This document shows positions 5,218-5,871 of a stretch of 15,119 bases of DNA, piece by piece. The translations under genes and the position numbers were made by a program. Location: the NCBI GenBank assembly GCA_036231405.1, contig JAZAHK010000031.1, positions 1 to 15,119 of the forward strand, in the 5' to 3' direction. Position 1 is the first letter of the stretch. Each line of letters begins with the position of its first letter. The notes beneath the pieces were generated by a model. The model was given only the letters and a program-made list of their open reading frames with translations, did no database searches and was not told the origin of the DNA. This DNA is from Nitrospinota bacterium. Its GTDB lineage: Bacteria > UBA8248.

Positions 5218-5871
5218 ATGAGAGTCACCCCTAAAGACCCTGACAAAGCGGAAGGAATTACCGCCAAGTTTTTTGACGCAAGTAAGAAGCTTAGAGGAAG
5301 AATTCCTAATTCTGTCCGTGCATGGGCACATATTCCGCATATAGCTAAATTCTTTCTCCCTTTTAGTATTACACTGCAAAGAGAAGCTGGGGGAGGAGTT
5401 CTTTCTTCTAAAATAAAAGAAATGGTGGTAATCAAAACCAGCCATGTGAATAACTGTAATTACTGACTTACTCATAACACAGCGCTTGGTCAAGCGGCTG
5501 GAATTTCTGATGAACAGGTTATGGCAATTACTTCAGATAATTACATGGAAGCAAACTGTCTGAACCCGAGAGAAAAAGCTGCTGTACTATGGGCAGAACA
5601 TGTCACAAAAAATACTGCTCGAAACCGGGATGACATCTTTGAGATCATAAAAAAAGTATATAATGAATCGGAAATTGTAGAACTAACGGCTATAAGTTGT
5701 CTTATGAACCTCGTAAATCGTTTTCAAGATTCTTTGCAAGTTCAGCTAGAAGAAGAAGAAGAAGTGAATAAGATCAAAAATTCTGTACAAGTCGATACAA
5801 ACAGGTTGAAAAGTTATCTTTCAGAAGTTATCGATGATTGGCCCAAAGAATTTCCAGAACCAAAAAGTTAA
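5218..5871 (+). CDS. AhpD/carboxymuconolactone decarboxylase-family selenoprotein (217 aa; TGA 5464-5466 = Sec83, motif C-N-Y-U)
   Basis: ORFs 5218-5466 and 5521-5871 share a frame and are joined by stop-free LTHNTALGQAAGISDEQV; KEMVVIKTSHVNNCNY(U)LTH matches the AhpD-like E..N.CxxC core; downstream REKAAVLWAEHVT..EIVELT..NRF is typical of the family; RBS AAGGAG at 5206-5211; hairpin 3' of the TGA. Confidence 0.88.
5480..5500 (+). promoter_or_regulatory. Candidate bacterial SECIS element
   Basis: CAGCGCTT-GGTC-AAGCG(G)CTG: 8-bp stem with one bulged G and a 4-nt loop starting GG, 21 nt after the in-frame TGA. Confidence 0.72.

Follow-up and report, generated by a model that had tools for sequence, protein, structure and literature searches.

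AhpD-like selenoproteins

AhpD-like selenoproteins with a C-x-x-U motif, where U is selenocysteine (Sec), were described from the Sargasso Sea by Zhang, Fomenko and Gladyshev in 2005 (27 sequences; PMC1088965). In the Global Ocean Sampling (GOS) data, Zhang and Gladyshev (2008) counted 299 Sec sequences and 902 Cys homologues of the family named 'AhpD-like 1' (COG2128; PMC2398784), and a 2026 review assigns the 'AhpD-like protein' to TIGR01926 (PMC13188914). The 2026 release of BSepDB places metagenome-assembled genomes (MAGs) labelled Nitrospinota/Nitrospinaceae, with 48-54 selenoprotein genes, within the ten richest bacteria (PMC13326102). We have analyzed one gene of this kind, at positions 5218-5871 on the forward strand of a 15,119-nucleotide stretch of DNA (the window; contig JAZAHK010000031.1) from the Nitrospinota bacterium assembly GCA_036231405.1. 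The segment is very probably a single gene for a 217-residue AhpD-like 1 selenoprotein (COG2128 / CMD superfamily) with a C-x-x-U centre. Judged from comparison of sequences, its in-frame TGA at 5464-5466 almost certainly encodes selenocysteine.

The gene shares with the AhpD-like 1 family the superfamily domain, Sec at the second position of C-x-x-C, Cys homologues in that same column and a hairpin directly after the UGA, and both are of marine origin. In supplement file 3 of PMC2398784 there are, between the labels '#AhpD-like 1' and '#AhpD-like 2', two GOS reads with the motif C-N-Y-U-[FL]-A-H-N-T-S-L-G-Q and the same C-terminal region, with its D-K-I-K and W-P elements. The subfamily of the present gene is represented by these two motif matches in a supplement whose family table gives 299 members. 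Most of the AhpD-like 1 sequences examined in that supplement read N-E-C-E-Y-U-I-R-A-H, with His at +4 from Sec and without the C-terminal extension, unlike the gene described here. None of three motifs searched occurs in the 2005 supplement (PMC1088965), and in the literature on Nitrospina and selenocysteine or selenoproteins we found no dedicated study except BSepDB. An earlier note on this stretch, made from the sequence alone, had called the family an established one. It is, the C-x-x-U proteins having been known since 2005, and even Sec forms of the subfamily were listed in 2008. Since family and subfamily are both already catalogued, the novelty of the gene is low.

Structure of the gene

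The elements of the gene are listed here in order of position.

5206..5211, + strand: Shine-Dalgarno-like AAGGAG, read from the sequence, 6 nt 5' of the ATG at 5218
5218..5871, + strand: predicted complete AhpD-like selenoprotein gene, 217 codons plus a TAA stop in a single frame with one TGA
5455..5457, + strand: Cys80 codon TGT, proposed resolving Cys of C-x-x-U (Cys in 106 of 121 sequences, query included)
5464..5466, + strand: UGA predicted to be read as selenocysteine, residue 83 (a TGA column in relatives, Cys in homologues)
5473..5478, + strand: His86-Asn87 codons, with His at +3 from Sec (invariant in the homologue alignment)
5480..5500, + strand: hairpin of the selenocysteine insertion sequence (SECIS) type, a predicted fold 13 nt after the UGA
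5746..5868, + strand: C-terminal extension specific to the subfamily, residues 177-217 (alignments with solved relatives stop at about residue 175-181)

From the ATG at 5218 to the TAA at 5869-5871 there is one frame, and its sole break is the TGA at 5464-5466. The list of open reading frames (ORFs) splits the gene into 5218-5466 (82 aa) and 5521-5871 (116 aa), separated by 18 open codons at 5467-5520. The peptide around the break is V-N-N-C80-N-Y-U83-L-T-H86-N87. The earlier note had described a single frame with the TGA at the second Cys of C-x-x-C, and linking codons that are open and family-like; the frame is as described, and the 18 codons are both open and conserved in homologues. The ATG at 5521, with which the second ORF begins, has no Shine-Dalgarno-like motif upstream. 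No in-frame TGA occurs in the other 12 genes of the window and one of those 12 ends in TGA, so that TGA is here a normal stop and no general sense codon.

Conservation of the TGA codon among relatives

The assembly to which the window belongs comprises 2.09 Mb in 48 contigs and is 92% complete. Within it, all seven matches of the read-through protein contain exactly one TGA each, and the gene is one of at least seven paralogues predicted to contain Sec. The tblastn alignments of the loci fetched from this genome and its relatives place a TGA opposite residue 83 in 36 of 36 cases. When loci from named genome records are added, 66 of 78 tblastn hits have TGA and the other 12 have TGC or TGT; counted as unique 105-nt contexts, 61 of 73 have TGA. 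Orthologues in the same genus are 88-89% identical over residues 1-217. Homologues with Cys or an aligned TGA at residue 83, and with conservation on both flanks, are what the earlier note had expected of such a comparison.

Matches were found in 48 of the 61 genomes searched (own included), among them all 36 other genomes of the same family, which have 3-21 matches each (21 in genome G016). Almost all of the matches listed per genome have one TGA; the exceptions are two entries with none, three with two TGA codons and one with a TAG. Within the genome itself, Sec-type paralogues lie on contigs C3, C28 (three copies) and C46 (two copies). An eighth CMD-domain frame with a TGA is present at C6:101596-101787, and a TGA is contained in 6 of the genome's 20 Pfam CMD matches.

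The protein databases give a compatible picture. In 121 sequences (the query, entered with C in place of U, and the 120 listed homologues from the databases) the residue-83 column holds C in 98, W in 12, S in 6, L in 4 and a gap in one. The S and L cases are mostly relatives of 333-378 aa that also lack the first Cys. Trp in this column had been named in the earlier note as an outcome that would speak against selenocysteine. In all 12 of these proteins, however, the W stands opposite a TGA in the nearest fetched locus, at 62-98% identity (for example P0029 against L079, 97.7%, and P0016 against the own-genome paralogue L021, 91.5%), which suggests that gene callers rendered TGA codons as Trp. 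As to the longer relatives, P0002-P0012, P0015 and P0017 (333-378 aa, 95-100% query coverage, 35-46% identity) have mostly Ala/Ser or Ser/Leu at the two redox columns and may be two-domain forms with one half degenerate.

Records titled Nitrospinaceae or Nitrospinota (the same-genus relatives), Acidimicrobiia, and Rhodospirillaceae or Alphaproteobacteria contain Sec forms; the Cys forms come from MAGs of Alpha- and Gammaproteobacteria. At least two Cys/Sec changes are needed on a quick tree with Shimodaira-Hasegawa-like approximate likelihood ratio (SH-aLRT) support, which is unrooted (midpoint rooting) and from which no direction of change is claimed. Three loci from Acidimicrobiia records (L071, L073 and L074; titled Actinomycetota) have Sec forms with the same hairpin core as the lineage of the present genome, and in this tree they lie beside the main Sec clade of its family. 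Their sequences hint at horizontal transfer of the gene together with its SECIS. Five loci of Rhodospirillaceae / Alphaproteobacteria (L079, L080, L081, L082 and L090) have two Sec-type AhpD-like genes each, on opposite strands and separated by about 1-2 kb; relative to the query the second copy shows about 31-33% identity, and its hairpin is compensated (CTC-GGT-CGA).

Contigs of four public sequencing runs were compared with positions 5100-6400, at low depth; one of these runs may be the source of the window itself. Two runs of seawater from two studies (X1 and X2) yielded a contig of 184-186 nt over 5332-5517 with 13 differences, all at or before 5463; the TGA and the following 51 nt are unchanged. 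Two variant contigs together have 16 coding differences, every one at a third codon position, 15 of them synonymous and one changing Asp to Glu. By these contigs, a diverged strain retains both the TGA and the frame. The TGA is thus shared by three genomes of the same genus, by dozens of relatives and by contigs from two other runs, which disposes of a further doubt raised in the earlier note, that it could be a sequencing error or a strain-private mutation. Among public sequencing runs, no RNA run was found to contain this sequence; one presumed-RNA run (X19) has a single 180-nt contig, at 6182-6360, outside the gene.

In the public protein collection the gene is stored as two separate exact proteins of 82 and 116 aa. 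The cluster of the 82-aa protein has 17 members, all of 82-84 aa, and one member is found on 82 contigs.

Selenocysteine machinery of the genome

The genome contains a tRNA-Sec (75 bits, cut-off 47; reported by ARAGORN as tRNA-SeC with anticodon TCA), selA (569 bits), selB (392 bits) and selD (335 bits, at C3:154791-155753 on the minus strand). A search for selA, selB, selC and selD had been proposed in the earlier note, and all four are present; on this gene content the genome is predicted to be able to decode UGA as Sec. The selD gene carries one in-frame TGA itself, and given this TGA its product, selenophosphate synthetase, is probably a selenoprotein too.

The SECIS-type hairpin

The predicted hairpin at 5480-5500 has 8 pairs, formed by 5480-5487 with 5492-5495 and 5497-5500, a bulged G at 5496, and the loop GGUC at 5488-5491. 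The SECIS of E. coli fdhF likewise has a GGUC apical loop. By its sequence and predicted fold the hairpin is a bacterial SECIS-type stem-loop, with G in the apical loop and soon after the UGA. Among 49 Sec-form sequences its core, GCGCTTGGTCAAGC, hardly varies, and both Gs of the loop are the same in all 49. In the alignment 80-83% of the cells pair, against 74-77% in shuffles, and none of 500 shuffles reaches the real value. The pair that closes the loop (alignment columns 24-29, window 5487-5492) is changed from UA to CG in 7 sequences. The lower stem takes one of two registers, set by Ala or Ser at residue 89.

The hairpin encodes the peptide [AS]-L-G-Q-A, which is common to the Cys forms, and this allows the same residues to be compared with and without a UGA before them. 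The codons of L-G-Q (residues 90-92) are CTT-GGT-CAA in 49 of 52 unique Sec forms, those from GC-rich genomes included. Cys forms with L-G-Q have this spelling in 0 of 9 cases and use seven different ones. Only after a UGA, then, are the synonymous sites frozen. Relatedness of the sequences means that these counts overstate independence, but the contrast between Sec and Cys forms is still clear. Such Cys and Sec spellings of one peptide are a natural control for an RNA signal within a coding region; they confirm a known principle of the SECIS and add nothing new to it.

A scan of the window against Rfam gave no family at gathering score anywhere; we know of no Rfam model for this SECIS type. 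A promoter and terminator scan of 4950-8350 was at chance level, with 7 promoter-like sites (shuffle mean 9.7) and 3 terminator-like sites (2.3). The one terminator-like site within the gene was rejected, as it coincides with the SECIS hairpin taken in minus-strand orientation.

Fold, family and subfamily

The Pfam CMD domain (PF02627) covers residues 57-127, across the TGA, with 36.4 bits (cut-off 23), and the generic AhpD core domain TIGR00778 also scores above its cut-off (31.7 vs 27.8 bits). TIGR02425 (PcaC, 4-carboxymuconolactone decarboxylase) gave no match to the gene product at E <= 0.001. The AlphaFold2 model, built with 79 aligned homologues, is one compact domain with a predicted local distance difference test score (pLDDT) of 94.7, a predicted template modelling (TM) score (pTM) of 0.90, and no segment below a pLDDT of 50. 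The best solved match in Foldseek is Mlr4105 (3c1l; E 1.7e-6, TM 0.80 by target), and D. radiodurans AhpD (6k40) gives TM 0.81; 2prr, 2pfx and 2oyo are also found, as is the debrominase Bmp8 (6ohi, TM 0.76 by target). M. tuberculosis AhpD (1lw1) matches weakly, with E 0.42 and TM 0.41-0.50. On this model the fold is AhpD-like. The CMD domain across the TGA, the predicted fold and the comparative evidence for Sec all agree with the proposal of the earlier note that the product is a 217-aa Sec oxidoreductase of the AhpD/CMD family.

The proteins of TIGR01926 and the solved AhpD-like structures (3c1l, 2prr, 2pfx, 2oyo and 6k40) share with the present one the all-helical fold over residues ~10-178 (TM ~0.75-0.81 by target) and a C-x-Y-C motif followed by A-H. 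Relative to the solved structures, the protein described here has its second Cys/Sec one residue closer to the His, and adds an invariant Asn87, a C-terminal extension of ~40 residues, and Sec for Cys. M. tuberculosis AhpD, which re-reduces AhpC, has in common with it the CMD-superfamily fold, a redox centre of the C-x-x-C type and a nearby His. It differs in the weakness of the structural match, in the position of the His (+3 here, not +4), and in that the scanned genes of the window include no ahpC. Bmp8 (6ohi, 6ohj), an AhpD-fold thiol-dependent dehalogenase, shares core fold and length and matches the family profile with E 1.7e-11, but identity is 18-21%, none of the neighbours in the window is of the bmp type, and Sec here replaces Cys. 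The nearest named selenoprotein models are NF053654 (YciW-related (seleno)protein) and NF041238 (alkylhydroperoxidase-related (seleno)protein), which belong to the AhpD superfamily and allow Sec at CxxC; the gene scores far below the cut-offs of both.

Two features set the subfamily apart, and the earlier note had pointed to both. It placed the His 3 rather than 4 residues after U. This position is confirmed throughout the subfamily: among 121 sequences 117 have H86 and 111 have N87, whether they are Cys or Sec forms. The canonical AhpD spacing C-x-x-C-x-x-x-H is thus replaced by His at +3. The +4 position is seen in P. aeruginosa PA0269 (CAYCVNMH) and in 2pfx (CFYCLVAH), and HMMER sets a one-residue gap in the subfamily. 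The second feature had been noted as an acidic C-terminal tail. The stretch exists, but it is not merely acidic; it is a conserved extension that in the model folds into two helices (180-189 and 194-206, pLDDT 86-94), with W208 invariant and E178, I186, D193, P194, Y200 and P209 conserved in at least 90% of the sequences. The distinct subfamily that these features were suspected to mark is real, and they are common to its Cys and Sec forms.

In the profile of the homologue alignment, the stretch G-Q-A-A-G-I-T-x-E-Q-V-x-x-I-S at profile positions 91-109 resembles the repeats of transcription activator-like (TAL) effectors. The matches to these repeats in the profile search of solved structures are short and sub-threshold, with 0 significant stretches; we regard them as spurious and the resemblance as due to chance.

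Gene neighbourhood

Three genes follow on the same strand.

5926-6300, + strand: 124-aa CMD/PcaC-like protein (Pfam and NCBIfam match)
6311-7243, + strand: metallo-beta-lactamase (MBL)-fold hydrolase (Pfam and NCBIfam match)
7285-8220, + strand: aldo/keto reductase (AKR; Pfam and NCBIfam match)

The gaps before the CMD, MBL and AKR genes are 54, 10 and 41 nt, and the scan of 4950-8350 found no terminator-like site on the + strand between the selenoprotein gene and these three. They are possibly co-transcribed with it, in this genus only. Among three same-genus genomes the CMD gene keeps its place in 3 of 3, the MBL gene in 2 of 3 and the AKR gene in 3 of 3. The CMD / MBL / AKR order was seen in no more distant fetched locus, where there were only two weak unrelated matches (L088 and L090). 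Outside the genus the neighbourhood is not kept, which makes it a poor guide to function. The 124-aa neighbour scores 65.2 bits against TIGR02425, below the cut-off of 155.7, and a Pfam scan of the window found no AhpC/TSA protein among its 13 proteins.

Elsewhere in the window, a fused TRAP permease gene (11060-13642, + strand) is the only one of the 13 genes that ends in TGA, and a PGA_cap gene (13644-14705, + strand) starts with GTG one base after its end. For the 347-aa ORF at 11-1054 (+ strand) neither Pfam nor NCBIfam gave a match at the thresholds applied. A carboxylase-like ORF at 8237-9805 (- strand) has a TTG start and an HMGL-like match only from residue 198 (profile position 155); its start or N-terminal part may be mis-called or divergent.

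Proposed mechanism and alternative explanations

We propose that during translation the hairpin at 5480-5500 would recruit SelB with Sec-tRNA(Sec), and that the UGA at 5464-5466 would then be decoded as selenocysteine and not as a stop, as the comparative evidence suggests. The product would be an all-helical thiol/selenol oxidoreductase of the AhpD fold, with Sec83 at the nucleophilic second-Cys position of the AhpD CxxC. In M. tuberculosis AhpD the nucleophile is the second Cys of CxxC (Cys133), on which the placement of Sec83 is modelled. By homology, the attack on the oxidised substrate, for example a hydroperoxide, the sulfenate of a peroxiredoxin or a disulfide, would come from the Sec83 selenolate, with His86 as general base. 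The adduct would then be resolved by Cys80 to an intramolecular selenenylsulfide, and a cellular thiol reductant would regenerate the enzyme.

Several results weigh against this interpretation or limit it. In single-sequence folding the 86-nt stretch shows no unusual stability (z = -0.97; 37 of 200 shuffles are at least as stable), and RNAalifold retains only the 4 apical pairs, at -2.78 kcal/mol. The lower stem exists in two registers, with the outermost pair open in 30 of 48 sequences in one register, and by the measure of further pair types the alignment does not exceed its shuffles, of which 142 of 500 do as well. Because the hairpin overlaps the conserved [AS]-L-G-Q-A and the sequences are related, the nucleotide conservation is partly non-independent. 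The protein is under the curated cut-offs of every specific NCBIfam model (TIGR01926, 61.7 vs 81.8 bits; NF053654, 65.6 vs 310; NF041238, 28.6 vs 175), and there is no dedicated model for the subfamily. With His at +3 instead of +4 and no adjacent peroxiredoxin gene, a peroxide-related function can be proposed only by analogy. Transcription and translation of the gene, proposed in the earlier note, and the selenium content of its product are predicted from sequence.

The same gene with the same Sec decoding could instead serve another selenol-dependent reaction, for example a Bmp8-like reductive dehalogenation or the reduction of small electrophiles. Such an alternative concerns function only and not identity, and takes as its premises the shorter Sec-His spacing, the invariant Asn87, the 40-residue extension and the many paralogues. 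Bmp8 (6ohi) is among both the structural and the sequence matches (TM 0.76 by target; E 2.5e-6 and 1.7e-11), the His position is unlike that of AhpD proteins of known function, and 3-21 matches per relative genome would suit diversified substrates. No peroxiredoxin adjoins the gene, whose neighbours in the genus encode the PcaC-like CMD protein, the MBL hydrolase and the aldo/keto reductase. However, the better structural matches (3c1l, 6k40 and 2prr) bear names of antioxidant defence or AhpD, and a neighbourhood that is not conserved past the genus is a weak clue to function. On balance we consider a different reaction of this kind unlikely.

A further proposal is quite doubtful in our judgement. 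It holds that the C-x-Y-U-x-A-H-N subfamily consists of functionally distinct, rapidly diversifying selenoenzymes that are not peroxiredoxin reductases, with a SECIS 'free' to evolve within [AS]-L-G-Q-A. The peptide, when written NCG-CUU-GGU-CAA-GCG, makes a perfect hairpin, and under this proposal a Cys form would turn into a Sec form by a change of TGC to TGA plus a few synonymous changes. This could account for the repeated switching between Cys and Sec (at least two changes), for the 3-21 matches per genome, and for the same hairpin core in records of Nitrospinaceae, Acidimicrobiia and Rhodospirillaceae.

It is very improbable that 5218-5466 and 5521-5871 are two independent small genes, or that the UGA is read by other means than Sec insertion, such as genome-wide recoding of TGA to Trp or Gly or near-cognate read-through. 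An ATG is present at 5521, but it lacks a Shine-Dalgarno-like motif, the 18 linking codons are conserved, and a single Pfam domain and a single compact predicted fold extend across the junction. General recoding disagrees with the 12 other window genes, which are free of in-frame TGA and of which one ends in TGA. Trp is printed at the residue-83 column in 12 database relatives, but near-identical DNA has TGA where these proteins show the W, Cys forms have their catalytic Cys in this column, and the genome has the full Sec machinery.

Hardly credible, and by its sequence relatives already contradicted, is a pseudogene or assembly error, in which the TGA would be a nonsense mutation or sequencing mistake in a former CxxC gene that now yields an 82-aa stub at most: the halves are indeed separate in public collections (82 and 116 aa) and single-sequence folding downstream of the TGA is unremarkable, but the same TGA is present in 61 of 73 unique related contexts from records titled as three phyla and is retained in the variant contigs of two other runs, the cluster of 82-84-aa stubs has 17 members, one of them on 82 contigs, the residues downstream of the TGA are conserved and confidently folded, and strain differences lie only at third codon positions.

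Meaning of the finding

The AhpD-like 1 selenoprotein gene proposed here is one more copy of an abundant and catalogued marine selenoprotein family. Its practical value lies in annotation: the public record holds two meaningless fragments of one gene, which is systematically truncated, and this shows a systematic loss of selenoproteins from MAG annotation in this lineage. The gene is consistent with the listing of Nitrospinota/Nitrospinaceae MAGs as selenoprotein-rich in BSepDB (PMC13326102), a link made by the name of the lineage. Mildly new are the shortened Sec-to-His spacing with the C-terminal extension, and the large copy number in the lineage. Also mildly new, as read from the sequences, is a SECIS that is written wholly within a peptide conserved in the Cys forms, which may make switching between Cys and Sec easier in this family.

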